Assembly (NCBI GenBank): GCA_963699255.1
Contig: OY969425.1
Coordinates: 1,080,001-1,112,000, forward strand
DNA length: 32,000 nt
Direction of reading: 5' to 3'
Source of the DNA: an uncultured bacterium
GTDB taxonomy: Bacteria > Margulisbacteria > WOR-1 > CAVSGV01
The stretch's first letter is position 1. The number at the start of each line of letters is the position of its first letter. Position numbers and translations under genes: made by a program. Below, piece after piece: positions 8,310 through 28,774 of the stretch. The notes beneath the pieces are model-generated. The model had not been told where the DNA came from. It saw nothing but the letters and a program-made list of their open reading frames with translations, and did no database searches.

Positions 8310-11300
8310 ATGGGTGTAACTAATAATGGATGCAATGCGGGATACAATATGGCGCCGAAGGTGTTCCCCTCGGGATATTTTCTTTTTGTTCTGTTAGCGA
8401 TTATTGTGATATTTTTCATCAATTCTTTCGCCTTTGCCATTTCAAAACCCAGTTCCGAGTTCCGCCATTTAAAAGGTGCAAGTACTGAGGCTTACGACAT
8501 CCTTCTTAATCCGTATCCGATACCCATTGGAAAAGATGTCGGGATCAGGGTTTCCGTCCCGCACGATCCACAAAAGGTAGTTTTCGTTTTTGATAAGAAT
8601 GCCAAATACACGCTCGGCAAGGTTGGGAATTACTGGAGAGGCATCATAAGATTGCCAGATAACCATGCGGAAGGATGGAATCTTTCTTTTGTCTATATCA
8701 AATACAAAAGATCAGATATCGATCGTGCGGCAGCGCAAAAGTTGCTGACGTTCTTTAAAAAGCTGTTCGCCAGTGTCAGGCTGACTAATAAATACAGCGA
8801 TTATATAATGTTCGAGGGCAAGATATGGATTAGAGCATACAGAGTGCCTGAGAACCAATTGATAAGCATTAAGTCTAAACCTGCGACTTCCGTTGAAGCG
8901 ATCTCAACACCTGAAGTTGTGCCCGTTATTATGACGCCTTCCGTTGAATCGGTTTTAACATCAGAAGCCATACCTTTTAAGGTTGTAACGTCCCTAGAAT
9001 CTAATCCGATCATTACGGCCAAACCTTCCATTGAAGCAGCTACAACTCTTGAAGCAGCCCCTTTAACGGTTCCGGTTTCTACCGGATCGCTTTTTTCGCC
9101 TGAAGCTACAATAACATCAGAAGCGGGATCGACCGGAGAGGCCTTTTGTTTTAAGATAAAAGGGACAAAATCGATCAATTTTGTTAGCAGGTCAATAGAG
9201 GGCAGCAAGGAAGGCTTTGTGCCGGGGCTGACAAGGGATGAGGCTCTTAGGATAAACATTTCCGGTGCCGCCAAGGATGGGACTGAGGTGGACGCGAGTT
9301 TCATTTCCACATCAACATCTGGCACGACAGCCTTAACGCAGAACGATGACAAAATATCGATCCTGGTAAAAAGAGCGAGCACCGAAGCCTACCTTGGGGA
9401 TTTCATAGGCGATTTTAACGATACCGAATTCGCGCGGCTTAATAAGAGCTTATCCGGCGTCAAGATTTCCGGTGATTATGCTACATGGGGTTTCAAGGCG
9501 CTCTATGCGACTCCTCGCGGTGACGCGAAGTATTACAGAGCCTACGGCAATGGAACGCAGGGGCCTTATTCCCTTGGCACTTCGCCGGTCGTAGTGGACA
9601 GCGATAAAGTTTATCTTGACGGGGCTCAGCAGAGACGCGGCAGCGATTACACGATCGACTATCAGGCAGGGACGATCACGTTCAAGAGCGCAGTGGTCAT
9701 AAGCACTTCGATAATCGAAGCTTATTACGACTGGAGCGAGACCCTTTATCAGCACTCGACCATCGGATTAAGATACAGGCAGACCGTCAATGATGACCTT
9801 AAGCTTGGGTTCACGTATATTAACGATTCGGATAGTACTTATAAAGCTTCGGAGATAAGAGACTCGCTTTCTGCGACAATTGAGCCGACAAGCCACTACA
9901 TCGTCGGCATCGACGGTTCAACAAAACTATTCGGCAACACGCTTATAAACTCCGAGCTCGCGTATTCGAATATAGACCTTAATATCCTTGAGCCTAACAA
10001 GACAATGGAGATAGGCAAGGCGTTCAAAATGGACACGACTACCGCGCAGGGGCCATTCACTTTGTTAACTAACTATAAAAGAGTTGGGGCGGGATTCAGC
10101 GCTATCGGAGACGCCGCGCCGCAGCAGGATGTGGATCAGTATGGCGGACTGTTCAGTTTCAGGCCGAGCAATATATATTATTTGGAAACGAATTATGCCT
10201 ACGATAAGTATAAACTCCTGGGAACACAATATTTGACAACCGACAAAAGCTTTAAGTCCAAATTCACTCCAGAGGATATCCCTTCTTTGAATTATGTTTA
10301 CAGGGAGACTGAGGATTCGAACGACCCAGTGACGGCTGCGCAGATAGACCGTTTAACGACACAGAATAATGTGGATTCAAGCTATAAATACGCGGGATTT
10401 TTGGTCTCGACACTGCAAGGAGGGATAGAGGAGAGAAGGAACAGGGAGCCTTCACTGGAAGTGACGACTTACAGGACCGTTAATTTCGGCACAGCCACTT
10501 ACGGCCTTGATAGGATATCCGCCTCCGGGAACATCGAATTAAAGGATACACAACTCCCGGATAAAACGAATCCTTTGACCAAGACATACAGCGCACTTGT
10601 TTCTGCAACGCCGACCAAAGACTATTTCGGCTCTCTTTCGCTCCAGATAATCGACGATTCCATCCAGGGAACAACAAATGTTACGGATCTTAATTACAAA
10701 GCAACTCCCGTGAATAATTTCTCAACTGACGGAAAATACACGATATCTTCCGTCCGGGAGGATTTTAACGGGACGTCGGAAGCGGTTTCAAAGCAAACAG
10801 GGTCCTTCCGATTTGATTACAGGCCGATCGATCCCATAAAGCTTAGGTATTATTACAAGCCGAATTTTACCCGGGTAGAGAGCTCCAATGCTTTAAGTTT
10901 CAACGATGAGGTTAATCAAGCCGAAATATATTATGCACCGCTCAGGGAGCTTTCAACGGGACTTGTTTATAAGACCGAAAATCTGATGAACCTAGATAGG
11001 ACCGACCCGGATTTTAAAAGAGAAGCCAACCGGCAGAATACGTATGACACGACCCTGCTCATTAATTCAGCTCCTTACAGGTTCTTATCGCTTGAACTCA
11101 GCTGCCAGAATACAGACCTTTTCCTTACTGAGCAGACCACTCCGGGGGCAACCGCTTATGACAGTTCGATCGGGAACACAAAGAAGTATGATATTAGCGC
11201 GAAGACATCGCTTTCGGAGCAATTCTCGATCGATTCGAGTTATTCTTACCAGAATCAGAACCAGTCGAGCACCAGCACAGCAGAAGAAATCGATGCACTT

Positions 11301-11657
11301 ACCCAGACGATAAATCTAAAAGGATTGTGGAACATTGATCAGTCCTGGTCGGTGTTTGCCAGTTATTCTTATTCGGAAATGGACAACCGCCTTTTAACGG
11401 ATGATGACATGACATATACTGTGTCGCCGGGAATGGGGGCCACATATAAAATAGGGGATATTCTAAGGGTTGACGCGCAATACACCAGATCCCAGTCTTT
11501 TGCCGCTTCAACCGCTCAGGTAGATACTTATTCGCTCAATACCAAATATGATCCCAATCAATACGTTCATATAAATATTCGTGGAACGCGGGAGATAAGC
11601 GTTGACCCGGATTACAAGTCTACTGAAATAATGGGAAGCTTTGATATCGTGTTGTGA
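8310..11657 (+). CDS. Large predicted outer-membrane protein: signal peptide, Ser/Thr/Pro/Glu-rich linker and a long beta-barrel-like C-terminal region
   Basis: The ORF is 8250..11657. Likely starts are ATG 8310 or ATG 8349 (MAPKVFPSGYFLFVLLAIIVIFFINSFAFA signal peptide). A low-complexity repeat TSVEAISTPEVVPVIMTPSVESVLTSEA... is followed by about 750 aa of alternating Y/S/T/N/D-rich strands typical of OM barrels. No specific family was recognised. Confidence 0.6.
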   Translation: MGVTNNGCNAGYNMAPKVFPSGYFLFVLLAIIVIFFINSFAFAISKPSSEFRHLKGASTEAYDILLNPYPIPIGKDVGIRVSVPHDPQKVVFVFDKNAKYTLGKVGNYWRGIIRLPDNHAEGWNLSFVYIKYKRSDIDRAAAQKLLTFFKKLFASVRLTNKYSDYIMFEGKIWIRAYRVPENQLISIKSKPATSVEAISTPEVVPVIMTPSVESVLTSEAIPFKVVTSLESNPIITAKPSIEAATTLEAAPLTVPVSTGSLFSPEATITSEAGSTGEAFCFKIKGTKSINFVSRSIEGSKEGFVPGLTRDEALRINISGAAKDGTEVDASFISTSTSGTTALTQNDDKISILVKRASTEAYLGDFIGDFNDTEFARLNKSLSGVKISGDYATWGFKALYATPRGDAKYYRAYGNGTQGPYSLGTSPVVVDSDKVYLDGAQQRRGSDYTIDYQAGTITFKSAVVISTSIIEAYYDWSETLYQHSTIGLRYRQTVNDDLKLGFTYINDSDSTYKASEIRDSLSATIEPTSHYIVGIDGSTKLFGNTLINSELAYSNIDLNILEPNKTMEIGKAFKMDTTTAQGPFTLLTNYKRVGAGFSAIGDAAPQQDVDQYGGLFSFRPSNIYYLETNYAYDKYKLLGTQYLTTDKSFKSKFTPEDIPSLNYVYRETEDSNDPVTAAQIDRLTTQNNVDSSYKYAGFLVSTLQGGIEERRNREPSLEVTTYRTVNFGTATYGLDRISASGNIELKDTQLPDKTNPLTKTYSALVSATPTKDYFGSLSLQIIDDSIQGTTNVTDLNYKATPVNNFSTDGKYTISSVREDFNGTSEAVSKQTGSFRFDYRPIDPIKLRYYYKPNFTRVESSNALSFNDEVNQAEIYYAPLRELSTGLVYKTENLMNLDRTDPDFKREANRQNTYDTTLLINSAPYRFLSLELSCQNTDLFLTEQTTPGATAYDSSIGNTKKYDISAKTSLSEQFSIDSSYSYQNQNQSSTSTAEEIDALTQTINLKGLWNIDQSWSVFASYSYSEMDNRLLTDDDMTYTVSPGMGATYKIGDILRVDAQYTRSQSFAASTAQVDTYSLNTKYDPNQYVHINIRGTREISVDPDYKSTEIMGSFDIVL

Positions 11658-11718: not shown

Positions 11719-12015
11719 TTTCCAGTATAGCATTTTACCGCCTTTCCCTGTAAAGCGCGCTCACGTTAGGACTTCGTATAAAGCTCTCTGTCCCGAAAAA
11801 AGTCCTCATCCTTGCGGATTTTTTCGGGTATTTGTTCGCGCCCTCCTCCAGTCGCCCGACTAAAGTCGAGGCTCCTTCCGGCCCTCCGCTCCTTACGCTC
11901 ATTCACCATAATTAGATAATAGGTAGGGTTCATTCGCTCCTCTCGCTTCGGGTGACAGGGGCGGTAAAATGCTGTTCCTTCCTGTGTGTTTTCATTTCAC
12001 AGGGAGGTGGTTTTC
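11719..12015 (+). ncRNA. Conserved ~295-nt structured non-coding leader upstream of the DprA-like gene (copy 1). Could be a cis-RNA or a DNA element such as an origin
   Basis: It aligns with 25297..25591: ttccagtatagca..., gacttcgtataaagc, cctcatccttgcgga, ctcctccagtcgccc, gaggctccttccggccctccgct, ctcgcttcgggtgacagg. Single-base indels break any common reading frame. Two hairpins show compensatory changes between copies (11792..11828 and 11854..11872). Confidence 0.5.
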
Positions 12016-12551
12016 ATGTCTCGTTTAGCAGGTGTCATTGGTTCCCGTTCATTGCCCGTTTCTTTTGCCCCGCTTGTCTCCCACATTGTTTCCCTTCTCC
12101 TTTCCCGTGGCTACGGCATTGCCTCTGGCGGCGCTGTCGGCGCTGATTCATTTGCTCTTGCAGCGGTTATTCATCGGGGGGTGGCTTCACGCTGTGTCAT
12201 TTACTCCGCTTGGTCTTCTGCTTCGGGCTTTCCTTCCTCTGTTCAGCCTCAGGTTTCTCGTTTCCTTGCTTCTGGTGGTCAGGTTATATGGGGTTCCTGT
12301 CCGGTTGGTGCTTTGCGTCAGGAGGCGGTTTCTGCTCTTCTCGGCAGGAACAGGCGTCTTGTTTCTGCTTCCTCAGTCATTGTTGCCTTCCTACACACCT
12401 ACACAGCCAGTCTCGTGGCTCTCTTTACACGGTCCGTCAGGCTGTTGAGCAGGGTGTTCCGGTCATCGTGTTCCTTTGCGGCGGCGGTGCGTCTTTGCCC
12501 GCTGATCTTGCTTCCAGGTGTTTAGTGTTTACAGAAAAGGAGGTGGTTTAG
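12016..12551 (+). pseudogene. Minimal DprA-like (DNA_processg_A Rossmann core) gene, disrupted by an 8-bp tandem duplication
   Basis: RBS GGGAGGTGG precedes ATG 12016. MSRLAGVIGSRSLP...IASGGAVGADSFALAAV...LLGRNRRLVSASSVIVAFLH then shifts frame to SQSRGSLYTVRQAVEQGVPVIVFLC...EKEVV*. The duplication is cctacaca x2 at 12390..12405. Removing one copy restores AFLHSQSRG, colinear with AFIHGQSRG in the intact copy 25592..26116. Confidence 0.75.
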
Positions 12552-12552
12552 T

Positions 12553-12729
12553 ATGTCAGCTTCAGTTTTGTCTCCATGCATATGCTGTCAGGATCGATTT
12601 CCTGATATGGCTTGCTGTTCAAGAGAAAAGTCTCGCTGTTATAGGTTTCTTGAATATATCGAGAGTCTTAGTAAAGCAAGGGCGCATAGCATCCTGATAA
12701 AAGAGCTCATAAGCTTGATTAACAAATAA
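12553..12729 (+). CDS. Cys-rich 58-aa protein conserved in both elements (absent from the ORF track because it is under 60 aa)
   Basis: The product is MSASVLSPCICCQDRFPDMACCSREKSRCYRFLEYIESLSKARAHSILIKELISLINK. It aligns with 26118..26309 (PCCYC...YAC..EK..CFKFLNYIQKLNRMRAQKVLIKEL). The same coupling sequence AAGGAGGTGGTTTAGTATG spans the DprA-like stop in both copies. Confidence 0.7.
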   Translation: MSASVLSPCICCQDRFPDMACCSREKSRCYRFLEYIESLSKARAHSILIKELISLINK

Positions 12730-13279: not shown

Positions 13280-13453
13280 ATGAGAATTTGTAAAGTATGC
13301 GGCTCGCTCCTAGTTCCATGCAACGAAGGCATAGATCATATCGGTTTACAGCCATATACACTTCCAAGAACTGTATATATCTGCCAGAGTTGCCTTACAG
13401 CGATACAAAATATCCTCGAATACGGTTTTTCCTCTCAATATATCAACGCTTAA
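13280..13453 (+). CDS. Small zinc-ribbon-like protein (CxxC...CxxC)
   Basis: The product is MRICKVCGSLLVPC...YICQSCLTAIQ. ATG 13280 is preceded by TAAGGTGA. The ORF track starts it at GTG 13271. It is followed directly by a terminator. Confidence 0.5.
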   Translation: MRICKVCGSLLVPCNEGIDHIGLQPYTLPRTVYICQSCLTAIQNILEYGFSSQYINA

Positions 13454-13459
13454 TCTCCA

Positions 13460-13492
13460 AGGCCTGATCCATCATCGGAACAGGCCTTTTTT
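13460..13492 (+). terminator. Rho-independent terminator ending the DprA-like/cargo operon of copy 1
   Basis: The structure is AGGCCTG-(14 nt)-CAGGCCT followed by TTTTTT. Confidence 0.7.
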
Positions 13493-14743
13493 GGTCGCGT
13501 TAACTTTCTTTCCCTTCCCATTCAAAACAAATCATTTCCGCGCCTCTCCAAGCACGAACACAAAAAAGACGACGCAGGCAGATACAGCTGGCTTGAAATG
13601 AAGACAAAGTCAACAGTTCTTGTAGTTAGCGATGAATTGCTGACAACCAAGGACATCTTTAGCAAAGCATGGGGAAACTAGGTCAAATGGTCCAAGCGAA
13701 AACACACGATGAAACCTGCTCCCTGCTTGCCTGCCTTTGTAGGGATTGCCTCTGGCTGGTATGATGGTATAAGTCTTGGTGTAGGCGGGTCTTGATAGAA
13801 AGCGATCAGCTGAAGCTGCTTTTTTTGCCTGCTTGTCTTTGGCCTGATAACCATTCATTGTTCCGCTGCCTTACTGTTGAAATGTAAAATATGTGCGGGA
13901 TTCCGACTTGTCTGCCGACAGGCAGGCTTTACGTCGGGAGTCATCGCCTGTCCCCCTCTTTACGAACTGTAAGGCTGGCGGAAGCCTCGGCAAAAGCGGA
14001 TGTCATTGTTAATTGTGTAACTGTCTCAATCTGAGTCTGAGAATGAAGCAAAACAAATGTTACATTTCAGCCAACGTGAAATAGCATGGATAATCGCCTT
14101 GCCCCGTTTTCAGTAGTGGGAAATGCTCACTGTTCTTTTTCAAAGCCGGTAGCTCCCTGCCAGCCTGCCCCGCCGCAGGCGGTAGCTTGTTCTGCCTACC
14201 CACCTTTGACGAGATCGGCCTGTCCGCCTCTCTACGAGCTGTATGGCTGGCGGAAGTATCGGGATAATGAACTTGCTTACCACACCACAGGGGGTAGCTT
14301 GCATCAACCGGAGCATCGGGGCGATGAGTTTACTTGTCCCGCCTGTTCGCCTCTGGAGAAAGCGAAGCCGTAAGCCGAGGACTCCGACCAAGCTCAGTCG
14401 AGGTCTTGAAGGAGTAGGTTTTGCAGCAATAGTTTCAAACTCCCAGCGTGTCTAAAACTCTTTGGGTCAGGTTCTTCTGTCTTTTGTTCGTATTCATATC
14501 TAACATCATTGATCCTTTGTCTTTCTCTACTGCTAATGAACAACATCTATGTATCAACTGTTAAAATGAATATCCTTGTGTACCGAAGTAACAAATAAAA
14601 TCCCAATTTGGCCGGTCTGGCCGCGCGCCTGCGCTCGTGCGTATGTGCCTGTGTACGCGTATCGTATATAGAGGGATACTGTGAAGTTCCCCGGCTAAGT
14701 CACAGTATCGGGAGATCATTCTGAACGCCGCAAATTCAGCTTC

Positions 14744-14772
14744 TTGCACCCGTGAATTGTATTAGGTAGAAT
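14744..14772 (+). promoter_or_regulatory. Sigma70-type promoter TTGCAC-17-TAGAAT, homologous to the tRNA-Pro promoter
   Basis: cTTGCACccgtgaattgtattaggTAGAAT compared with cTTGCACccgtgaatagtgttgggTATAAT (minus strand, 21156..21184). Confidence 0.55.
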
Positions 14773-14778
14773 AATGCT

Positions 14779-14861
14779 AACAGTTCGACCTGAAGAAGGT
14801 TGCGCTACCAAGAAATTGGAGCAAACCGCTGATTTTCCTAGATCGGCGGTTTTTCTTTTTT
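14779..14861 (+). ncRNA. Candidate small transcript: tRNA-3'-end-like stub fused to a copy of the tRNA-Glu trailer and terminator
   Basis: It lies downstream of promoter 14744..14772. The sequence is ...cagTTCGAcctgaagaaggttgcGCTACCA, then the trailer, then the terminator CCGCTGAT-N8-ATCGGCGG-TTTTTCTTTTTT (14826..14861). From GCTACCA onward it is identical to the sequence following tRNA-Glu. Confidence 0.3.
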
Positions 14862-14956
14862 GGGAAGGTGTTCGGCGGTCGGCGTTTGGGCGGCGGCAAA
14901 CGCCGACCGCCGGAAAAGAACCTCCGTTCAGATTTTCCGCGCCAAAATCACTATAA
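14804..14956. repeat. IR1-L: left copy of a perfect 153-bp inverted repeat
   Basis: It is the reverse complement of 16581..16733, checked base by base with 153/153 matches. Confidence 0.95.
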
Positions 14957-15027
14957 CTAATTACTATTGTTGTTTTTCTTTTTGTAAATTGGCGCCCAAT
15001 ACTCAATATCCAAATGAATCCGGCCTT

Positions 15028-15234
15028 TTAAGATAAGCCCAAAAGCTTGTCTACTGAAACCCCCAAACCCACAGCTATCGCCTTCACCATCTCGATTCCC
15101 GGATTTTTCACCATCCCTTTTTCAACTCTTAACAAGTGATGTGAAGTAAACTTACCGCCACATTTAAAAGCTAATTTCTCTCGCGACAGACCTGTTTTTT
15201 TTCGATATTTCTCGATATTTTCACCTAAGTGCAT
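15028..15234 (-). CDS. Xre-family helix-turn-helix transcriptional regulator
   Basis: The 68-aa product contains LGENIEKYRKKTGLSREKLAFKCG...LLRVEKG..NPGIEMVKAIAVGLGVSVDKLL (HTH_3 pattern). It is divergent from the recombinase gene. Confidence 0.8.
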   Translation of the reverse strand: MHLGENIEKYRKKTGLSREKLAFKCGGKFTSHHLLRVEKGMVKNPGIEMVKAIAVGLGVSVDKLLGLS

Positions 15235-15271
15235 AACGGATAGATTATAACATAATTGTCATAATATTTAT

Positions 15272-15300
15272 TTGACATGGTGGCATATATGTATTAACAT
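15272..15300 (+). promoter_or_regulatory. Promoter TTGACA-17-TAACAT for recombinase 1
   Basis: The sequence is TTGACAtggtggcatatatgtatTAACAT, followed by RBS GGAGGG and ATG 15325. Confidence 0.55.
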
Positions 15301-15324
15301 ACACCCCACTATAGGAGGGCCAAT

Positions 15325-16767
15325 ATGAAAATAGCTATATATACGCGTGTTTCAACCGACACCCAGGCCGACAAAGAATTCAATTCCTGTGAAGCTCAGG
15401 AGCAGAAGATAAGGTCATTTGTCTTAAGTCAGGAAAATATGATGGTTTATAAAGTCTATTCCGACCAGGGTTATACAGGGGCTAACACTGACCGCCCCGC
15501 TCTAACGGAAATGCTTAACGACATACAGAATAGCAAGGTCGATCTTGTCGCTGCCTATAAAATTGACCGTCTCACTAGGTCGCCGAAAGACTTTTATCAT
15601 TTAATTGATATATTTGAACAACACAAGGTCAATTTTATATCCGTTACTGAACGATTCGATACCTCCACCCCATCGGGACGGCTTCTCAGGAATATCATGC
15701 TTACTTTCGCGCAATTCGAAAGAGAGCTTATCAGTGAAAGAACAAGAGATAAAATGCACGAATGCGCGAAAAAAGGCCTCTGGACTTGCGGCCATACGCC
15801 ATTTGGTTATAAAAGGCTAGAAAAGAAACTGATCATTGAGCCGGTAGAAGCAAAGATTGTAAGGGCTATCTTTGAAATCTTTATCTCTACAGGTTCAACT
15901 GCTGAGGTTTATAAGAAACTGAAAGAGAAAAGTTTGTTTAACAGGCGCGGATTGCCTATATCTCAAGAAGAAATCGGGAAAATACTCAAACGGATTGTAT
16001 ATATCGGTAAAATCGAATTTAAAGGCAATATTTATCAGGGAATTCATGAGCCGATAATTTCTGCTGAGTTACTTGAGGCTGCTCAGGGACTTCGCAAAGA
16101 AAGGGCAAAGAAAAGTAAAGTATTCAATTTCTCTCTTTTCCCCGGAATAGTTCTCTGTAAGGAATGCGGCTCAGTAATGAGCGCATCTTTCTCTAATAAG
16201 TTTAAAGATGCCCGCCGCATTAGATATTTTTATTATCGATGCTCAAGCGTTACAAAAAGGGACATTTCTTTTTGCGCCACCAGATATGTCAGTGCCGACC
16301 GCCTTGACTCGTTCATCATCGATAGTCTTGATAAGATATCGAAAAATCGGCAGTATCTTGAGAGTTTGATCTTCACGCTCAACTATCAGCAGGATGGGTG
16401 CCAAAAGGGAATCGAACCGGTGGGGTCGGCTTCATCCTATTCTCCTGAAAGGTTGAAAGATATCCTTCGAGATATTACTATGGTCCCGAAGTTTAAGTCC
16501 AAAACTGAAAAGGAAATTATCATTCAGAAGCATATTAAACAGATCAATTATTCAAAGGAAGCTATTGAAGTCGTGATAAATTATAGTGATTTTGGCGCGG
16601 AAAATCTGAACGGAGGTTCTTTTCCGGCGGTCGGCGTTTGCCGCCGCCCAAACGCCGACCGCCGAACACCTTCCCAAAAAAGAAAAACCGCCGATCTAGG
16701 AAAATCAGCGGTTTGCTCCAATTTCTTGGTAGCCCCACGGGGAATCGAACCCCGATCGTCAGCTTGA
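15325..16767 (+). CDS. Large serine recombinase (resolvase catalytic domain, recombinase domain and zinc ribbon)
   Basis: The N-terminus is MKIAIYTRVSTDTQ (catalytic Ser), followed by YKIDRLTRS and LRNIMLTFAQFERELISERT. A CKECGS...YYRCS zinc ribbon is present. It is about 70-75% identical by eye to 26312..27790 over the N-terminal domain. The last ~62 codons are encoded by IR1-R, and the ORF stops inside antisense tRNA-Glu (...APRGIEPRSSA). Confidence 0.9.
   Translation: MKIAIYTRVSTDTQADKEFNSCEAQEQKIRSFVLSQENMMVYKVYSDQGYTGANTDRPALTEMLNDIQNSKVDLVAAYKIDRLTRSPKDFYHLIDIFEQHKVNFISVTERFDTSTPSGRLLRNIMLTFAQFERELISERTRDKMHECAKKGLWTCGHTPFGYKRLEKKLIIEPVEAKIVRAIFEIFISTGSTAEVYKKLKEKSLFNRRGLPISQEEIGKILKRIVYIGKIEFKGNIYQGIHEPIISAELLEAAQGLRKERAKKSKVFNFSLFPGIVLCKECGSVMSASFSNKFKDARRIRYFYYRCSSVTKRDISFCATRYVSADRLDSFIIDSLDKISKNRQYLESLIFTLNYQQDGCQKGIEPVGSASSYSPERLKDILRDITMVPKFKSKTEKEIIIQKHIKQINYSKEAIEVVINYSDFGAENLNGGSFPAVGVCRRPNADRRTPSQKRKTADLGKSAVCSNFLVAPRGIEPRSSA
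16581..16733. repeat. IR1-R: right copy of the 153-bp inverted repeat, comprising the last 7 nt of tRNA-Glu plus its 3' trailer
   Basis: See IR1-L. On the tRNA strand it contains the tRNA terminator (16676..16711) and a 15-bp perfect hairpin GGCGGTCGGCGTTTG-N8-CAAACGCCGACCGCC. Confidence 0.95.
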
Positions 16768-16801
16768 AAAGCTGATGTCCTAACCGTTAGACGATGGGGC
16801 C
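16727..16801 (-). tRNA. tRNA-Glu (anticodon UUC), CCA encoded
   Basis: The sequence is GGCCCCATCGTCTAACGGTTAGGACATCAGCTTTTCAAGCTGACGATCGGGGTTCGATTCCCCGTGGGGCTACCA. It forms a cloverleaf with a 7-bp acceptor stem, TTCGATT T-loop and anticodon loop TTTTCAA. Confidence 0.9.
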
Positions 16802-18731: not shown

Positions 18732-18737
18732 TTGCGC

Positions 18738-18830
18738 GTCGATAAGGGGAGCCCATGAATGTGGGGCTGAGAACTCCGAATTGATCGGAGGACCCGTTGA
18801 ACTTGATCAGGTTAAAACCTGCGAAAGGAG
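18738..18830 (+). promoter_or_regulatory. TPP (THI-box) riboswitch, probably acting on translation
   Basis: The sequence AGGGGAGCC...GGGGCTGAGA...ACCCGTTGAACTTGATCAGGTTAAAACCTGCGAAAGGAG matches the conserved THI-box cores (GGGG.GC, CUGAGA, ACCC..GAACcUGAUC.GG.UAA.aCC.GCG.AGG). The RBS AAGGAG lies in the 3' closing strand, 7 nt before ATG 18837. Confidence 0.85.
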
Positions 18831-18836
18831 AAAATA

Positions 18837-19877
18837 ATGAACACAGACAAACTGCCCGAACTCGGAAAGATCCATCCTGACTTCTTCGACCGCGTGATAT
18901 ATCCCCGCTTGGGGGCTGATGATAAGAACATAGTGATCGGGCCCAGGCACGGCGTTGATTACGGGGTATTAAAGGTCGGCGACAAATATCTGGCGATATC
19001 CACAGACCCGTTCTTCATAGTCCCTTCCTTCGGATTCTCAAAAGCCGCGTGGTTCGGATTACATATAATACTATGCGATGTCGCGGTATCGGGACTTAAA
19101 CCAAGATACCTGACGATCGACCTCAACCTGCCTCCCGAGATGACCGAAGTTCAGCTGGAAGAAATGTGGGAGACCGTACATTCGGAATCGAAAAAATACG
19201 GCATAAGCGTGATCACAGGCCACACCGCGCGCTATACCGGATGTAACTATCCCATGGTCGGCGGAGCGACCGCCATCGCTATCGGCGGTGAAAAAGACCT
19301 GAGAGGCCCTCAAAAGGTGAAAGCCGGGGACAAGATCATCATAACGAAAGGCCCCGCAATAGAGACGACCGGCCTGCTTGCAGTCCTGTTCCCTCAAAAA
19401 TTCATTGAGGCCGGCGGCAAAGCTTTCCAGAAAGAGGCCGCGGATATTTTTGCCCAGATGTCGGTGATGGATGACTGCGCCATCGCGCGTGAATTTCCCG
19501 GGACCCGCGTTATGCACGACGCGACGGAGTGCGGGATATGGGGCGGACTTTACGAGATGGCGAAGGCGGGGAAATATGGAATAAGGGTTGAGGAGGAATT
19601 GATACCTATTCAGCCCGTAATCAAGAAGACCGCTGAACTTTTCAAGTTCGATCCTTTCTGCTCGATAAGCGAAGGAACTCTCATTGCGATCGTTGACGGG
19701 AAGGAAGCCGATGAACTCGTTGCTGCGTTTAAGAGAAACGGGATATTAAGCGCGGTCGTCGGCGATGTTCTGGCAGGGAACAAGGGGATCAAGATAGTCA
19801 GCGAAGGAAAAGAAAGAACGCTCGAACACCCTAAGATCGATCCTTACTGGAAATTAGCCGCGGAGTTTTCCAAGTGA
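18837..19877 (+). CDS. AIR-synthase-related (PurM/HypE/ThiL superfamily) protein under TPP riboswitch control
   Basis: The 346-aa product has a PurM-like N-domain pattern (GVDYGVLKVGDKYLAISTDPFFI, LHIILCDVAVSGLKPRYL, SVITGHTARY) and a C-domain pattern (MHDATECGIWGGLYE). Confidence 0.7.
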   Translation: MNTDKLPELGKIHPDFFDRVIYPRLGADDKNIVIGPRHGVDYGVLKVGDKYLAISTDPFFIVPSFGFSKAAWFGLHIILCDVAVSGLKPRYLTIDLNLPPEMTEVQLEEMWETVHSESKKYGISVITGHTARYTGCNYPMVGGATAIAIGGEKDLRGPQKVKAGDKIIITKGPAIETTGLLAVLFPQKFIEAGGKAFQKEAADIFAQMSVMDDCAIAREFPGTRVMHDATECGIWGGLYEMAKAGKYGIRVEEELIPIQPVIKKTAELFKFDPFCSISEGTLIAIVDGKEADELVAAFKRNGILSAVVGDVLAGNKGIKIVSEGKERTLEHPKIDPYWKLAAEFSK

Positions 19878-20998: not shown

Positions 20999-21117
20999 AC
21001 GGCTACGCCATAATGTCCAATTTCAAATGGCAAATGTCAAATTAAATCCAGTTTAAAATCCCTAATTTGGCATTTGTCATTGGTCATTTGTCATTCCATT
21101 CCGACCCCCGGTCGGGA

Positions 21118-21146
21118 TGGTGGCTCGACCCGTTTCCTGCCGAGCC
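21118..21146 (-). other. Acceptor-stem-like microhelix with an encoded ACCA end, in the tRNA-Pro leader
   Basis: The minus strand reads GGCTCGG-CAGGAAACGGG-TCGAGCC-ACCA, with a 7-bp stem (the last pair is G-T). It sits 9 nt downstream of the -10 box. Confidence 0.45.
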
Positions 21147-21155
21147 ATCCCTCTG

Positions 21156-21184
21156 ATTATACCCAACACTATTCACGGGTGCAA
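21156..21184 (-). promoter_or_regulatory. Promoter TTGCAC-17-TATAAT reading toward tRNA-Pro
   Basis: The minus strand reads cTTGCACccgtgaatagtgttgggTATAATcagaggg. It lies about 160 nt upstream of the mature tRNA-Pro 5' end. Confidence 0.6.
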
Positions 21185-21217
21185 GAAAAAGGATTTACAT
21201 AGGCTATAGCTAGAGGG

Positions 21218-21262
21218 AACAGCGGTCTTCGCTTCCCCCACACCCCCGCGAAGACCGCTGTT
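21218..21262 (-). terminator. Perfect 15-bp stem hairpin immediately after the protease stop codon, a likely operon terminator
   Basis: The structure is AACAGCGGTCTTCGC-(15 nt)-GCGAAGACCGCTGTT. There is no clear U-tract, so intrinsic termination is not certain. Confidence 0.5.
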
Positions 21263-21268
21263 AATTAA

Positions 21269-22000
21269 TCATGATTCTTTCTTTTTTTGAGATAGCGCAC
21301 TTTCTATGCCAAATAAAATTAAATGTGCTGAGCAAGCCAAGGAGATGCCGGAATTATAAGGTAGCTTTGCAACGCGTTTATTATTATCATCATATAAAGA
21401 AATTGAGTCGGGCAAAAACCCATATATTATTCCAATAAATTTCCCATCTTCTTGGGAGAATACTGGGGAGCCACTATTCCCGTGGCTGGCAGCCCCGTCA
21501 ATCAATAAAACATTTTTATCTTTTGTGATATTGGCAATGCTCCCTCGTCTAATAAACGGCTTAAATTGCAATTCTTCATTAGCAAGTCCCAATGGGTATC
21601 CTAAATATACAACAAATAAGCCCTCTTTAATCTCGCTATGCTGTTTCAGCTCGTCAACATCTAGTAATTCGCGCGGCCCAAACACTTCCTCCAGCGTTTT
21701 ACCAACATCCTCTTGCCTATGTGGTATTGAAAATAATGCCAAATCAAGGTTTGTATGAGCAGTTTCAAACTTGACTTTTCTTATTATCCTCTTATCGGGA
21801 TTAAGAAGCACTTTTATTTCACCATTTCTTGCAAGTTGGCCTACATGTTTATTTGTTAAAATAAAAGGAACAAATTCATCTTGCGATATCTTCTTTTGTA
21901 TAAGTGTGCCAGTCATTGATGGTGTTTCACGCTCCCAATCCAATATTGCAACAACACTTTTGTGACGTTTAATGTAAATTTCCCTGGTATCAATCGCCAT
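21269..22000 (-). CDS. Trypsin-like (S1/Trypsin_2-type) serine protease, with no signal peptide
   Basis: The catalytic-triad context is ILTNKHV (His), NLDLALF (Asp) and GAASHGNSGSPVF (Ser). The product is 243 aa. Confidence 0.75.
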   Translation of the reverse strand: MAIDTREIYIKRHKSVVAILDWERETPSMTGTLIQKKISQDEFVPFILTNKHVGQLARNGEIKVLLNPDKRIIRKVKFETAHTNLDLALFSIPHRQEDVGKTLEEVFGPRELLDVDELKQHSEIKEGLFVVYLGYPLGLANEELQFKPFIRRGSIANITKDKNVLLIDGAASHGNSGSPVFSQEDGKFIGIIYGFLPDSISLYDDNNKRVAKLPYNSGISLACSAHLILFGIESALSQKKKES

Positions 22001-22124
22001 ATTGTTTCATGCCCCCTTTCTCAATCATCTCTTTACCCTGCCATTCTATTAATTATTTCCTGAATCATCTCAAGATGTTTAATTTTGTTTGACATCATTT
22101 AGCCTTCAATAAATCGCTCTAAAA

Positions 22125-23114
22125 TTATTTGCACAACAAATATTTAACTTTATTGCCTGACCCAACACATTTAATTTTACCTTCAGAAGCGAGTTCTTTT
22201 ACATATTTACAGACCGTGAGATATCCCCTTCTAATTGTATGTGATATTTCATTTATAGATAGTTTGTCCGCAGTTTGCAACAATTGAATAATTTGCTGCT
22301 TACTTTCCATCTTTCTTTCTTTAGCCTCTCTTGATCTTGCTTCCACGGTTTTTGAAAATGCTGCTAATGTATTAGGATGCATTCTATGTTTAGGCCTTTC
22401 GATACCATATTCTATTCTAAATTTATGTATATTCCCCCAATACCGATTAATCTTCCTCCAAGTTAACGCCCAAGACATCCTCGAGCTTAGTTCTGTTGTG
22501 CTGGGATGATGCCCTAAGCAATCAACTATCTGCTGATACCCTTGCAAGCATTTCCCAATCCTTTGTTGCCTTTTGTATTCACCATAATCAATATTAAAAT
22601 GCTTAATAAGTAACTTTAAGTCAATATTATCAATATTAAGCTTCTCGCATAATTCGTTTGTATTAAATGTTTCTCTGATAGCCGCGATAATCCTATCCCT
22701 TGAATATGAGGTGACAAGCTTTTCAATGTTATGCACCTTGTGCCTTTCATAAACAAATAACCCGTACTTACCGCCCTTTTCCAATAATTGTCTTACGCGT
22801 TCCCTTGTAACATTTAATTCATCTCCAACTTTTTGTAACGTTAAATATTTATCATATAGTGTTTTTACCTCCATCAAATGTTTTGCTACATCAGGGGAAA
22901 CAGGCCTCTCTATCCCCAACCTTTTTCGAAGTTCAAATATTCCAATCCCTCCATCAGGATCAAGCAACTCTAAAAGAAATGAATACGGCACATTAAGTAT
23001 TTGTGCTACCTTAACCAAGGAATAAGCATTTCGCCACATTCTAATAATCTCATACTTAATGGCCTCAGAATTCTTGGTGTTAAACAATAACTGCAGTTTT
23101 TTTAATGGCTTCAT
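22125..23114 (-). CDS. Multi-HTH DNA-binding protein with sigma-70 region-4-like repeats and a C-terminal winged helix
   Basis: It contains LTLQKVGDELNVTRERVRQLLEKG (sigma r4-like), SLVKVAQILNVPYSFLLELL and RYWGNIHKFRIEYGI. The C-terminal region is LSINEISHTIRRGYLTVCKYVKELASEGKIK. Its start overlaps the GHKL gene stop by 4 bp (ATGA). Confidence 0.6.
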   Translation of the reverse strand: MKPLKKLQLLFNTKNSEAIKYEIIRMWRNAYSLVKVAQILNVPYSFLLELLDPDGGIGIFELRKRLGIERPVSPDVAKHLMEVKTLYDKYLTLQKVGDELNVTRERVRQLLEKGGKYGLFVYERHKVHNIEKLVTSYSRDRIIAAIRETFNTNELCEKLNIDNIDLKLLIKHFNIDYGEYKRQQRIGKCLQGYQQIVDCLGHHPSTTELSSRMSWALTWRKINRYWGNIHKFRIEYGIERPKHRMHPNTLAAFSKTVEARSREAKERKMESKQQIIQLLQTADKLSINEISHTIRRGYLTVCKYVKELASEGKIKCVGSGNKVKYLLCK

Positions 23115-24853
23115 TCTTCTGTCTCTTTAGGCGCCTGTTTTGAGGCAAGCCGGGCTAACTCATTGTAGACTTGATTAAAAATAATAAGGTTCCCTTCGCT
23201 ATAGTCATGGGAAATTTCAGTAAAAGCAACATCACGAACAAGGCTATCCAGACAAGCATCCTTTGAAGCTCTTATATAAAAACTATGCTTTTCGTTGATC
23301 TCAATTAAATTGCTATCCTTTGTAAACTTCACTAAATCTCCTGTTTCTGACATATCTACAGTATTTATATTATAATTCTTGCCTGAATATGCCATTTTTT
23401 CTGCTTTATTAAGACTTTGGTTCCTTCTTTCCCTTTTATCTTTCCCTCTAGTTACAACACCAGCTGCTTTTTTTGCCTCTTCTTCAACCTTATCTAAATT
23501 CGGATAAGGATTATCGGGCGCGTTCTCAATTTCCTTTGTAAACTCTTTTTTAATTTTTGCTTCTAAACTACCCAGAGTAAGCGGATCATCAAGTTTAGAA
23601 ACAATAGTATTTACTTCGGTCTCAACTCGCTTTACTATATTTCGATCCTGTTCCTTCTTTGCAGTTTCATCTTTTTTTAATAACTTATTTTGAACATCAG
23701 AAATTGACTTGTGTCCAAAATCCCAATACTCCCGATATTCAGGACAATCTACGAAATCGTTTTTTGCAAATGTAACAAAGTTTTTAAGCCCGTCCGCTTC
23801 CCCATATCCAAATAACCTATATCGATATCTTCCTCCTGATGTTAATCTAAACAAATCAAACCATTCAGCTTTCTCATTGACAATTCTGCCATTTACTCGC
23901 GTCCATACCCCCTGCTTTGTTACAGGGATAGGCTCTTTGGTGAAATAGATAACTAATTTTACATGGCCAATTAGCTTGAGATCTTTCTCATATTCAAATT
24001 TTTCGTTATACTCAAATTTTGGCTCCTCTATTTCAATATCTTTTCTTTCTCTCTCTTTAATAATTGACATAATTATTTTAAAGTTTTGACTTTTTGGCAT
24101 TTTATTTTCAAATCGTTCAATCAAGCGATCACTATCAATAGTTTTAGCGTTTAATTGTTCCATATAAATTGCTGTACCATGTAAGTCTTTTCCACATTGC
24201 TTTGTGAACACTTTGCTTCTTATTGCACTTACATATTTTGCCTTGTCCAATTCTGCTCTATTCATATTGAAAATATGTTCTTTTCCATCTTTTTTCGTTA
24301 TTATCTTGCATACCTTACATATATTTGTTATTGCTAATTTACCACCCATTCCATATTCGCCAATTGGAGATCTACTAAATTTTGGGGATTTTGAATCAGC
24401 AGTTTTATTACTTTCTCCGTATATTACATATGATGCGAGAGCTTCTTCGTCCATCCCATTTCCATCATCAATAATATTTAAAGCATTTTTGTCATAATCT
24501 AATATTATCTGGACCGTAGTTGCGTCTGCATCATATGCGTTAACAATTAATTCTTCGATATTTGAAGCAAGTTCTTGAAAGGTTCTTTTTGCCATCTTTT
24601 TAATGCCGACTGTTGCAAAATCTCCCCTTAATTCCCATTCCTTAAATTCTTCTCCTTCATTTTCCGATTTAATATTCTCATGGTCATGAATGTAATCCGT
24701 AACAGTCTTTTTTGAGAATTTGTATCTTGATCCAACTTTCCTTCCGGGAAGATCCCCTTTTTCAGCTAATTTATAAAGTGTCTGTCTCGTAATTCCAAGC
24801 AATTTACATGCTTCTTCGGTAGATATTGGTTCCAATAAATTATTTTCATTCAT
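23111..24853 (-). CDS. Fusion of an excisionase/MerR-type HTH with a GHKL (HATPase_c_3, MORC-like) ATPase and a large uncharacterised C-terminal region
   Basis: The HTH is EEACKLLGITRQTLYKLAEKGDLPGRKVGSRYKF. The Bergerat-fold motifs are N-box EELIVNAYDADAT, G1 IIDDGNGMD and G2 IGEYGMGGKLA. The product is 580 aa. RBS GGGAGG is present. Confidence 0.75.
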   Translation of the reverse strand: MNENNLLEPISTEEACKLLGITRQTLYKLAEKGDLPGRKVGSRYKFSKKTVTDYIHDHENIKSENEGEEFKEWELRGDFATVGIKKMAKRTFQELASNIEELIVNAYDADATTVQIILDYDKNALNIIDDGNGMDEEALASYVIYGESNKTADSKSPKFSRSPIGEYGMGGKLAITNICKVCKIITKKDGKEHIFNMNRAELDKAKYVSAIRSKVFTKQCGKDLHGTAIYMEQLNAKTIDSDRLIERFENKMPKSQNFKIIMSIIKERERKDIEIEEPKFEYNEKFEYEKDLKLIGHVKLVIYFTKEPIPVTKQGVWTRVNGRIVNEKAEWFDLFRLTSGGRYRYRLFGYGEADGLKNFVTFAKNDFVDCPEYREYWDFGHKSISDVQNKLLKKDETAKKEQDRNIVKRVETEVNTIVSKLDDPLTLGSLEAKIKKEFTKEIENAPDNPYPNLDKVEEEAKKAAGVVTRGKDKRERRNQSLNKAEKMAYSGKNYNINTVDMSETGDLVKFTKDSNLIEINEKHSFYIRASKDACLDSLVRDVAFTEISHDYSEGNLIIFNQVYNELARLASKQAPKETEE

Positions 24854-24905
24854 AATAGTTCAACCTCCCAATTACTTATTTTAACACATTTACTAATACA
24901 TACAG

Positions 24906-24934
24906 ATATTAACACATATTAACATTTATGTCAA
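24906..24934 (-). promoter_or_regulatory. Strong promoter TTGACA-17-TAATAT for the GHKL operon, overlapped by a tandem 9-bp direct repeat
   Basis: The minus strand reads cTTGACAtaaatgttaatatgtgtTAATATctg. The repeat TGTTAATAT-g-TGTTAATAT (plus-strand coordinates 24906..24924) covers the spacer and the -10 box. Confidence 0.65.
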
Positions 24935-25002
24935 GAGGCAAAATGCTGGGCGCCATTTATAAGAGTGGGGGTCTAAGGAACGCGCCCGCATGTAGTGAAT
25001 GC

Positions 25003-25048
25003 GTTGGGTATAATCAGAGGTCTGGCTCGGCAGGAAACGGGTCGAGCC
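25003..25048. repeat. Inverted copy of the tRNA-Pro promoter and microhelix module
   Basis: gttgggTATAATcagaggtctGGCTCGGCAGGAAACGGGTCGAGCC is the reverse complement of 21122..21167, with a 3-nt difference (tct versus gat). Weaker identity extends to gtgaat (24995..25000). Confidence 0.9.
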
Positions 25049-25081
25049 ATTTTATCGTTCCCGCAAACCATTGCGGATTTT
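25021..25081 (+). ncRNA. Candidate ~60-nt transcript: microhelix fused at the discriminator position to a copy of the tRNA-Met trailer and terminator (a tRNA-gene mimic)
   Basis: The -10 TATAAT lies at 25009..25014. The microhelix GGCTCGG..TCGAGCC-A is at 25024..25049. The trailer follows, with terminator CCGCAA-acca-TTGCGG-ATTTT at 25061..25081. Confidence 0.3.
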
Positions 25082-25231
25082 GGGCGGCTTGGAGCGGCGC
25101 TTGCGTCGCGACAAGCCGCCTTATTCTTAGCTGAAAGCAAGTTCTCTTCCGCCGAAGGGTCGCAAAGCGGGCCGTAGGCGGCATTTTTAGCGTCAGCGCA
25201 GGAAGGATCTCCGCTCTCGGAATACAATAAC
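25047..25231. repeat. IR2-L: left copy of a 185-bp inverted repeat
   Basis: It is the reverse complement of 27568..27752 with 184/185 matches. The single mismatch is at 25206. Confidence 0.95.
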
Positions 25232-25296
25232 ATGCCTTCTATTGCCTCTATCGAATATTATGCCACTTTCCGATGTGCCATTTAATTTTTCCATCA

Positions 25297-25591
25297 TTTC
25301 CAGTATAGCATTTTTTTGCTTTTCTCCTGTAAAGGTCGCTCACGGAGGGACTTCGTATAAAGCACTCTATCCAGAAAAATCCTCATCCTTGCGGATATTT
25401 TCTGGTAAAAGTTCGCTCCCTCCTCCAGTCGCCCGCCTCCGGCGAGGCTCCTTCCGGCCCTCCGCTTCGTTACGCTCTCTCGCCCATATCTCCGCTTAAG
25501 GTAGGCTCGTTCGCTTCACTCGCTTCGGGTGACAGGCGCAAAAAAATGCTCCTCCTTCCTTGTATTCATATTTTTTACAGGAGGTGGTCAT
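25297..25591 (+). ncRNA. Conserved structured non-coding leader (copy 2)
   Basis: It is homologous to 11719..12015. The hairpins are at 25371..25405 (CCAGAAAA...TTTTCTGG) and 25431..25448 (GCCCGCC-tcc-GGCGAGGC). ORF 25242..25499 is not conserved in frame in copy 1. Confidence 0.5.
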
Positions 25592-26116
25592 ATGTCTCGT
25601 ATTGTTGGTATTGTTGGTTCCAGGTCTCTTCCCGCTTCTTTTTCCTCGCTCATTTCCTCGCTTGTGTCCGCGTTAGTTGCTCGTGGTTTCAGGGTGGCCT
25701 CAGGCGGCGCTGTAGGGGCTGATCAGTTTGCTCTTTCAGCCCTCGTTGAGCAGGGTTTGTCTGCATCGGGTGTTGTTTTTTCTGCCTGGGCTTCCGCTTC
25801 CGGTTTTCCTGTTCCGGTCCGGCCTCTTGTTTCCCGTTTTCTTGCTTCCGGTGGTCAGGTTGTTTGGGGTTCCGGTTCGTCGTCTCAGCCTCGTTCAGCG
25901 GTGGTTTCCGCGCTTCTCGGCAGGAACAGCCGTCTTGTTTCAGCCTGTTCGCTTGTCATTGCTTTCATTCACGGCCAGTCCCGGGGAACGCTTTACACCA
26001 TCCGTCAGGCTGTCAGGCGCGGTATTCCTGTTTATGTGTTCCTTTGCAGTGAGGCTTCATTGCCAGCTGATTTGGCTCCTCACTGTTTAGTTATAAATAA
26101 AAGGGAGGTGGTTTAG
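25592..26116 (+). CDS. Minimal DprA-like protein (DNA_processg_A Rossmann core only, 174 aa), with an extremely adenine-poor coding strand
   Basis: RBS AGGAGGTGG precedes ATG 25592. The product contains IVGIVGSRSLP...VASGGAVGADQFALSAL...ALLGRNSRLVSACSLVIAFIHGQSRGTLYTIRQAVRRGIPVYVF. This follows the DprA pattern (GSR ... SG.A.G.D ... RN.... S..V.V.E....SG.L.T...A...G..V...). The SAM and winged-helix domains of full-length DprA are absent. Confidence 0.65.
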   Translation: MSRIVGIVGSRSLPASFSSLISSLVSALVARGFRVASGGAVGADQFALSALVEQGLSASGVVFSAWASASGFPVPVRPLVSRFLASGGQVVWGSGSSSQPRSAVVSALLGRNSRLVSACSLVIAFIHGQSRGTLYTIRQAVRRGIPVYVFLCSEASLPADLAPHCLVINKREVV

Positions 26117-26117
26117 T

Positions 26118-26309
26118 ATGGTTTTCATTCCCATTCATCCGTGCTGTTACTGTGGAAAAACCGAGACAGGATATGCCTGTACGACAGCAGAAAAAGTCGA
26201 GTGTTTTAAATTTCTGAATTATATTCAGAAACTCAACAGAATGAGGGCGCAGAAAGTGCTGATAAAAGAGCTTAAATATTTACTAGAAACAAACAAAGGA
26301 GGTAAATAA
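26118..26309 (+). CDS. Cys-rich 63-aa protein conserved in both elements
   Basis: The product begins MVFIPIHPCCYCGKTETGYACTTAEKVECFKFLNYIQKLNRMRAQKVLIKELKYLL... It is coupled to the DprA-like stop (TAGTATG). Its homologue is 12553..12729. Confidence 0.7.
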   Translation: MVFIPIHPCCYCGKTETGYACTTAEKVECFKFLNYIQKLNRMRAQKVLIKELKYLLETNKGGK

Positions 26310-26311
26310 TC

Positions 26312-27821
<1,510 letters not shown>

Positions 27822-28534: not shown

Positions 28535-28699
28535 GCGGATGCAGATTATATCAGAATTTGCGCTTTTTGTGAACACCCTGTAAAATATAATGACAAATAT
28601 TCAATGACCAATGTCAAATGAATGAATGTATAATCATTATTCTTTAACTTGTCATTTGTAATTTGTTCATTGGGAATTATCCCGCGAAAGCGGGATTGC

Positions 28700-28774
28700 G
28701 GGCGGTTAGTTCAGCGGTAGAACGCTTGCTTCACACGCAAGAAGTCAAAGGTTCGATTCCTTTACCGCCCACCA
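28700..28774 (+). tRNA. tRNA-Val (anticodon CAC), CCA encoded
   Basis: The sequence is GGGCGGTTAGTTCAGCGGTAGAACGCTTGCTTCACACGCAAGAAGTCAAAGGTTCGATTCCTTTACCGCCCACCA. Confidence 0.9.

Follow-up and report, generated by a model that had tools for sequence, protein, structure and literature searches.

This work concerns a stretch of 32,000 nucleotides (hereafter, the window) from the genome of an uncultured bacterium of the WOR-1 lineage of Margulisbacteria (contig OY969425.1, positions 1,080,001 to 1,112,000), in which two related genes for large serine recombinases (LSRs) stand beside tRNA genes. The interpretation that we favor, and consider probable, is that these belong to two paralogous integrative elements, A and B, each of which carries its attachment site, attP, twice and in inverted orientation around the recombinase cassette, the right copy having recombined with the tRNA. 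An original prediction, made from the letters of the sequence, had seen in the long inverted repeat of A the structure of an insertion sequence (IS) with terminal inverted repeats (TIRs). The architecture is real and recurrent, but it is neither an IS-type TIR, nor a host trailer, nor an artefact.

Results

The inverted repeat that brackets the recombinase gene of A (Table 1) has arms of 166 nt, 97% complementary and separated by 1608 nt. Since mismatches fall only at offsets 2, 4, 158, 160 and 163, its core is perfect over 153 of 153 positions, as the original prediction had claimed and a script now verifies, and a repeat of this kind cannot be of chance origin in 32 kb. The outer end of the right arm takes in the last 7 nt of tRNA-Glu (GCTACCA, 16727-16733), an overlap also proposed before and corroborated by ARAGORN and Rfam. 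Equally correct was the description of a terminator followed by a GC hairpin: a scan finds the intrinsic terminator in both arms (in the right one at 16714-16685 of the minus strand, where it now serves tRNA-Glu), and the hairpin downstream of it can be read directly from the sequence. When the arms and the non-coding 13450-14740 were scanned against Rfam for structured RNA, only five tRNAs and a thiamine pyrophosphate (TPP) riboswitch matched.

Comparison with relatives shows where this arm comes from. With its terminator and GC hairpin it is common to the occupied tRNA-Glu sites of L087 and L085, whereas the empty tRNA-Glu of L003, a related genome, does not have it, homology ending there at the tRNA 3′ end (16729); the arm of A is therefore element-borne. 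The repeat had been taken for the trailer of tRNA-Glu, and a comparison with an unoccupied tRNA-Glu had been proposed; in L003, where it could be made, the 153-bp arm is not the trailer. On these alignments, the repeat of A reads as the P arm of an LSR attachment site, present twice: the right arm together with tRNA-Glu would be attR, and the left arm joined to the P′ unit that abuts it (14743-14964 in all) would be an intact attP in inverted orientation. GCTACCA is the core common to attR and this internal attP, and its occurrence in the left arm, previously considered a possible relic of another tRNA-Glu, most plausibly represents the core homology of attP to attB. The P′ unit of A contains a promoter-like TTGCAC-17-TAGAAT pointing to the core (read by eye, as the consensus scan did not flag it), followed by the T-loop-like GTTCGA, and its TTCACGGGTGCAAG is found in two places only in the window, at the P′ of A (14743-14756, minus strand) and at the attL of B (21172-21185, plus strand); the part of this unit nearest to the core is likewise without a second copy there. 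The pairing of an xre gene with the recombinase gene, as in A, is also present in the relatives L085 and L088.

Element B follows the same design with different letters. Its inverted repeat (212 nt, 98%) is unrelated in sequence to the arms of A, and two elements of one design and unlike sequence in the same window argue against chance, assembly artefact and local accident alike. For B the ends could be located, since L003, whose LSR is 94% identical to that of B, has tRNA-Pro and tRNA-Met adjacent to each other, with a native tRNA-Met trailer that reads ..ggcggcagtggTGG up to gccctg (its end being ..gcagtggTGG/gccctg). In the window, the spacer and trailer hairpin homologous to L003 end at 21120-21123 (..ggtcgggatggTGG; ..gatggTGG) and are followed by CTCGACCC, whilst the junction of B with tRNA-Met reads ..cgataaaaTGG/gccctg. 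By this alignment B is a 6.6-kb insertion (about 21121-27752) exactly at the 3′ end of tRNA-Met, with TGG at both junctions. There is no target-site duplication at B, only the shared 3-nt core TGG, as expected of conservative site-specific recombination. Conservative integration of attP into attB over a short core is thus seen for B by empty-site comparison; A shows only attR and the intact attP.

If the right end of B is named P and the left end P′, the order of its parts is attL (trailer and P′), cargo, the reverse complements of P′ and P, the cassette (DprA-like gene, 63-aa open reading frame (ORF) and LSR) and attR (P and tRNA). At the internal junction (25022-25070) the sequence is, letter for letter, the right end, TGG and the left end in reverse complement, which means that the integrated element holds an intact attP, inverted within it. 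Nor is the 212-nt ‘trailer’ of B host DNA, for it is not at the tRNA-Met of L003 but on the far side of L003's own copy of the element. Other cargo lies between the same P′ units in L003 and L001. The cargo of B itself (21168-25002) has a GC content of 0.30-0.36 and is bracketed by 47-nt P′ units; its trypsin-like protease matches the PADLOC candidate PDC-S45 (E 3e-16), and it may be a defence-type cassette. Both DprA-like genes lie in strongly A-poor, T-rich DNA (12001-12500 and 25501-26000; AT skew about -0.6, GC 0.54-0.55) with all three forward frames open, and their matches to Pfam DNA_processg_A are modest (E 4.6e-07 and 4.6e-14).

By all the sequence criteria tested, the recombinases of A and B are members of the LSR family. 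The resolvase-type catalytic domain (PF00239) is found in both (E 1.4e-39 and 2e-40, respectively), is homologous to that of the TP901-1 integrase (E 4.6e-27) and contains a YTRVST motif invariant in an alignment of 31 sequences, and the Recombinase and zinc-ribbon domains (PF07508, PF13408) follow on its C-terminal side. Residues 153-341 align with the structure of the A118 integrase C-terminal domain, and residues 25-339 with the SPbeta integrase. As the original prediction had it, the recombinase ORF of A ends inside antisense tRNA-Glu, its last ~62 codons being the P arm and then the antisense tRNA (..APRGIEPRSSA). Conservation across 31 family members stops at ..YSKE(T/A)IEV, and the tails beyond differ in length and sequence, although most end in the antisense translation of the tRNA T-arm, G(I/F/L/V)EP. 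It had been proposed that homology between the two paralogues ends just after this motif, exactly where each repeat begins; the first part stands, the second does not for B, whose repeat has its start some 9 codons before that point, within the conserved codons for IYSKETIEV.

In 14 of 16 loci the whole arm can be read in the LSR frame without a stop. All 16 arms together contain eight stop codons in this frame, while the two remaining frames have 33 and 53, and the stop codon of the gene therefore comes to lie beyond the crossover. Where the stop falls can be followed in the 154 family proteins whose core has a recognizable end: the tail is continued by a tRNA in 86 of them and by P′ in about 33 (25 by motif search and about eight by eye among the unclassified tails). 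Tails of the second kind have the motif ..(S/T)(I/L)I(I/L)PN(T/L)IH.., which is what the promoter-like motif gives in antisense translation. When the proteins are clustered at 90% identity or more, a single arm-encoded tail is seen to run on into as many as three different tRNAs, or into P′. Flipping the cassette of A in silico (14957-16580) gives an LSR tail of exactly ..VAQPSSGRTVSIILPNTIHGCKKLNLRRSE, as had been forecast, and near-identical recombinases from other samples have either a tRNA-derived tail or one of the flipped type, ..SIILPNTIHGCKK... The earlier suggestion of an att site inside a gene, with a C-terminus that depends on the state of the DNA, is thus supported both by the stop-free arms and by the two kinds of tail in near-identical recombinases.

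The architecture is by no means restricted to this genome. The LSR family gives 5181 matches at E < 1e-20, and of 34 sampled loci, most of them from one-genome-per-species contigs, some two thirds show an inverted repeat with its right arm at the 3′ end of the LSR gene. In at least 12 loci (A, B and L087 counted) a long arm reaches 3-11 nt into an antisense tRNA (Asn, Gln, Ala, Lys, Ser, Glu or Met). Arms of 130-250 nt occur in at least 15 other loci, and among the hosts are Saccharibacteria, other Patescibacteria, Omnitrophota, Planctomycetia, Caldisericales, Chitinivibrionales and WOR-1/Saganbacteria. Outside the left arm lie 50-70 nt of conserved P′ architecture, that is, a promoter-like motif, the T-loop-like GTT(C/T)GA and then the last nucleotides of the tRNA. 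A curated complete WOR-1 genome (L005) has such an element at tRNA-Lys, with a P′ pair at 383-429 and 6747-6794 and a P pair at 6784-6998 and 9211-9426; its P arms are only 78% identical, and arms so diverged cannot be an assembly artefact. Another locus, L089, has three diverged copies of the P arm (9-262, 1698-1948 and 4887-5123; 70-79% identity), which alternate in orientation about a single LSR cassette and a single block of cargo; this suggests that attP copies can link cassettes and cargo into chains.

One LSR, 99.9% identical at the DNA level, was found in three contexts. In L091 the reverse complements of P′ and P precede the cassette, which is followed by P and tRNA-Leu; in L090 the reverse complement of P precedes it and P, P′ and then other genes follow; and in L092 it lies between two intact convergent tRNAs, each fused to an arm (tRNA-Arg on the left and tRNA-Leu on the right). 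In a further relative, L001, the LSR reads into P and P′ with an arm upstream. The arrangement in L092 fits the product expected either of recombination between the spare attP and a second tRNA in cis or of a double recombination (cassette exchange), by a pathway that we infer from the end product. Between the window and L003 the tRNA cluster differs by several inversions in order and orientation. These inversions and the contexts of L001 and L090-L092 fit an active second site, without proving it.

The tRNA cluster of L003 has repeats of its own. A perfect 121-nt inverted repeat (9314-9434 and 11226-11346), consisting of a 5′ fragment of tRNA-Val and its upstream region, surrounds a 1.8-kb block with tRNA-Val(cac), Glu, Pro and Met. 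A palindrome of 20-21 nt (cctgcc(t)tgccggcaggcagg) lies at rearrangement junctions (6849-6869, 9311-9331 and 11336-11355), is present in both arms of the element and interrupts the tRNA-Val 5′ fragment; either a small palindromic insertion or a scar of recombination could account for it.

Table 1. Parts of elements A and B and their surroundings in the window; roles of attachment-site parts are predicted from comparison.
Feature	Position	Strand	Evidence
DprA-like gene (11986..12525) and 58-aa ORF	11719..12729	+	70-88% nucleotide identity to 25297-26309 of B; DNA_processg_A
P′ half of putative intact inverted attP of A, abutting the left arm	14743..14803	+	Homology to P′ of B and of more than 12 other loci
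Left arm of inverted repeat of A, inverted copy of the P arm of attP/attR	14799..14964 (perfect core 14804-14956)	.	Repeat finder, script; arm element-borne
Intrinsic terminator in left arm	14823..14852	+	Terminator scan
Xre-type helix-turn-helix (HTH) gene, 68 aa, divergent from recombinase gene A	15028..15234	-	HTH_3, E 3.6e-08
Promoter-like site TTGACA-17-TAACAT, just 5′ of the recombinase A start codon	15272..15300	+	Consensus match only
Large serine recombinase A, 480 aa; conserved part to ..YSKEAIEV (about 16572)	15325..16767	+	Resolvase, Recombinase, Zn_ribbon_recom
Right arm of inverted repeat of A, putative P arm of attR, with terminator and GC hairpin	16573..16738 (perfect core 16581-16733)	.	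Repeat finder, terminator scan, tRNA-Glu comparison
tRNA-Glu(ttc)	16727..16801	-	ARAGORN, Rfam
Native tRNA-Met trailer hairpin, 6.6 kb from its tRNA, then TGG core; B half of attL	21097..21123	-	Aligns with L003 tRNA-Pro/tRNA-Met spacer
P′ half of attL, left end of composite element B, promoter-like motif pointing outwards	21121..21185	+	Repeat pairs, empty-site comparison
Low-GC cargo of B: trypsin-like protease, HTH/sigma70_r4 protein, HATPase_c_3+HTH_17 protein	21186..25002	-	
Internal inverted attP of B: P′ unit 25003-25049 joined to left P arm 25047-25258	25003..25258	+	Reverse-complement match to joined ends
DprA-like gene and 63-aa ORF of B	25529..26309	+	
Large serine recombinase B, 492 aa, 57% identical to A; runs via right P arm into antisense tRNA-Met	26312..27790	+	
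Right P arm of B, attR at tRNA-Met 3′ end, TGG core 27750-27752	27541..27752	.	
tRNA-Met(cat), integration target of B	27750..27821	-	ARAGORN, Rfam

The window has other features as well. A TPP riboswitch (18735-18846; 57.1 bits against a gathering threshold of 54.3) stands directly 5′ of an AIR-synthase-related (ThiL-like) gene (18837..19877). The ~1.3 kb between a 60-aa ORF and the P′ of A, in which there is no convincing ORF, contain two imperfect direct-repeat pairs (13946-14301; 50 nt at 84% and 27 nt at 78%) with no Rfam match. An ORF of 2044 aa (83-6217) has three to five internal copies of a ~650-nt repeat and probably encodes a large surface protein; NHL-repeat and outer-membrane-like genes come after it. 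Finally, AT-rich motifs of the AATGACAAATG type precede tRNA-Pro and both tRNA-Val genes (21012-21096 and 28589-28883), and a related motif of the aaatcccaaa type precedes tRNA-Glu and tRNA-Met, all of these being probably promoter or UP elements of host tRNAs.

Discussion

If the interpretation favored here is correct, LSRs A and B would target the 3′ ends of tRNA genes, and the P arm that each element brings along would be a long piece of DNA (150-250 bp across the family), holding the last conserved LSR codons, a stop-free extension of their frame, the GC hairpin and the terminator. This terminator would serve whatever transcribes across the core, namely the tRNA at attR and P′, as a promoter-like mimic of a tRNA 3′ half, at attP; its copy in the left arm of A would halt transcripts arriving from the promoter-like site in P′. 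The LSR gene has no stop of its own, the stop being supplied past the crossover, so that the LSR tail differs between the attR and attP contexts. As for the spare inverted attP, we infer that it is active: it may allow the cassette to flip, by the LSR itself or by host RecA acting on the perfect arms, it may react with another tRNA gene in cis, with inversions or deletions as the outcome, or the cassette may enter between two tRNAs by double recombination.

Several points weigh against this interpretation. The relatives L085 and L088 have no left arm (no P′ motif is found within 8 kb at the left end of the repeat-free L085), so that the duplication is common but not obligatory. The attL of A, which should consist of the native tRNA-Glu trailer and P′, was not found anywhere in the window, and neither was an inverted partner of the P′ of A that would mark it, with seeds down to 8 nt or three mismatches; A may therefore be a rearranged or partly deleted copy. 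The DprA-like module is inside the arms in B and outside the left arm in A, where it is probably cargo or a relic of another copy of the element. No recombination directionality factor (RDF) was identified, the xre gene of A, the small ORFs and the DprA-like protein being speculative candidates. This genome is known from one contig only, and an exact-sequence lookup of the flipped LSR-A and LSR-B found neither in a collection of 15 billion proteins. As short-read assembly may orient a repeat-flanked segment arbitrarily, counts of ‘states’ across metagenome-assembled genomes are soft, and L090 and L091 differ in more than the orientation of the cassette, their flanks beyond P′ being different too. 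The inferred cores show little ungapped dyad symmetry (9-11 of 26 positions), and no claim is based on it. Lastly, the duplicated inverted attP could not be derived from single-attP circles by canonical LSR steps: tandem integration, recombination of attP with attL or attR, and antiparallel synapsis were tried, and none gives the observed order simply.

It is possible, if rather doubtful, that the repeat is a dedicated invertible switch, in which the LSR or host RecA flips 14957-16580 and thereby toggles both the tail of the LSR and the side, tRNA or P′, that the cassette faces. This explanation overlaps with the favored interpretation and differs from it solely in making inversion the purpose of the repeat. 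The inverted geometry and the perfect arms speak for it, and the original prediction was right that sites so placed suit inversion, not excision. Both arrangements with an upstream arm, LSR to tRNA and LSR to P′, occur among relatives (L091 against L090; L001), about 30% of the family tails go into P′, and numerous contigs break off within the left arm or 46-49 nt past it, which fits a repeat or an alternative path there and is what alternative assembly paths would produce. Canonical LSRs, however, do not recombine attP with attR. The split between arrangements is uneven, with LSR to tRNA prevailing; the differing flanks of L090 and L091 are more than a flip would leave; no flipped form of this genome was found; and the arms of L005 and of L089, only 78% identical, show that homogenization by frequent flipping is not universal.

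Quite unlikely, in our opinion, is that attP is one long perfect palindrome, made of the P arm and its own reverse complement on a small circle with the recombinase only, and that its targets are dyad-symmetric, with two tail-to-tail halves resembling tRNA 3′ ends. The arms would then be true terminal inverted repeats, and P′ a mimic of a tRNA half on the side of the target. In L092 the cassette lies precisely between convergent tRNAs, both intact and both fused to a P arm, as such a site would give, and P′ does have a T-loop-like GTTCGA and does end in tRNA 3′-end nucleotides. Yet in nearly all loci the left arm adjoins P′ and not a tRNA or its native trailer, and relatives without a left arm exist both integrated (L085) and reading into P and P′ (L088). 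An attP of P joined to P′ explains B and L005 in one step, where the palindrome needs an additional non-canonical one. A perfectly symmetric site would also give random orientation relative to the tRNA, with a cassette whose flanks would be identical on both sides.

The IS-like reading of the original prediction was rejected, as the arms are not transposon ends: in B the empty-site comparison puts the true left end 3.9 kb further left than the left arm, which is internal, and in A, as in more than 12 loci besides, it is P′ and not target DNA that borders the left arm, the exception being L092, where tRNAs flank both arms. It is very unlikely that the left arm is a host relic, i.e., the trailer of a second tRNA-Glu moved by chromosomal inversion or duplication, for although it begins with 7 nt identical to the tRNA-Glu 3′ end and the tRNA cluster is rearranged between the window and L003, the arm is absent from the empty tRNA-Glu and present at occupied ones of other genomes, the same geometry recurs at many tRNAs in many phyla, and to its left is the conserved P′ unit and not a tRNA. 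Less likely still is an assembly or amplification chimera, which perfectly identical arms in a single metagenome-derived contig might have suggested, given the second element with a different arm sequence in the same window, the same layout in more than 15 independent assemblies of different projects, arms diverged (78-97%) as no assembler would make them, and a reading frame conserved across the arm.

The favored interpretation, that of a duplicated inverted attP with one copy joined to a tRNA, puts A and B close to the phage-type LSRs without making them typical of these. Their Resolvase, Recombinase and zinc-ribbon architecture is that of the phiC31, Bxb1, TP901-1, A118 and SPbeta SprA integrases, and B resembles phage-type systems in its conservative recombination of attP with attB over a very short core (TGG) with no target duplication. 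Known LSR systems have one attP of about 50 bp. Here, by contrast, a 150-250-bp arm is duplicated in inverted orientation and the integrated element keeps an intact attP, the frame of the integrase has no stop of its own and crosses the crossover, and integration takes place at the 3′ ends of a wide range of tRNA genes. What sets these elements apart from described LSR elements is that attP is duplicated and inverted, that the arm differs in length and content, and that the frame stays open past the crossover.

Other systems share parts of this logic. The SSV1-type archaeal tyrosine integrase is split by integration, and in Tn4451/TnpX and some integrative and conjugative elements a promoter is assembled at the circular junction, so that there, as here, the state of the DNA alters the product or the expression of the recombinase; in the present case, however, only the non-conserved C-terminal tail changes, the catalytic and DNA-binding domains staying intact. 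The Hin/Gin/Cin/Pin invertases also combine a serine recombinase gene with a segment bracketed by inverted repeats. They are enzymes of about 190 aa which use 26-bp sites and need a Fis-bound enhancer. In place of such a small enzyme of catalytic and HTH domains, the elements described here have a 420-aa core with recombinase (RD) and zinc-ribbon (ZD) domains, and arms of 150-250 bp that double as a tRNA integration site; both orientations are found among relatives, though not in this genome. L092 has the end-product geometry of engineered phiC31 cassette exchange with inverted att sites; that is a laboratory design, and no natural counterpart turned up in the literature searched. Nor did this literature yield natural inverted or double attP sites, LSR elements at tRNAs, or integrative elements of such kind in the candidate phyla radiation (CPR), which is no proof of novelty.

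It is tempting to go further and see in these elements an undescribed class of LSR elements, a natural dual-attP cassette with two inverted copies of a long attP, either of which could capture a tRNA 3′ end; such a cassette could be exchanged or trapped between tRNA genes, could cause inversions and deletions in tRNA clusters, and would have its LSR tail rewritten at every event as a read-out or controller of the state of the site, RDF-like or auto-inhibitory. We regard this as speculation, and unlikely.

LSRs are major tools of genome engineering, and their natural att logic is thought to be simple, with one short attP and one attB. The family described in this work appears to differ, as its targets are the 3′ ends and T-loops of many tRNAs, and it has a spare attP and arms of 150-250 bp with a tRNA terminator and an open frame. 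Its layout explains why short-read assemblies fragment at such loci, and the family itself could supply integrases whose C-terminus can be programmed or reports the state of the DNA. The family abounds in Patescibacteria (CPR), Omnitrophota and Saganbacteria, lineages with poorly characterized mobile elements. Were the spare site active, it would provide both a natural precedent for cassette exchange and a mechanism for the rearranged tRNA clusters of related genomes.

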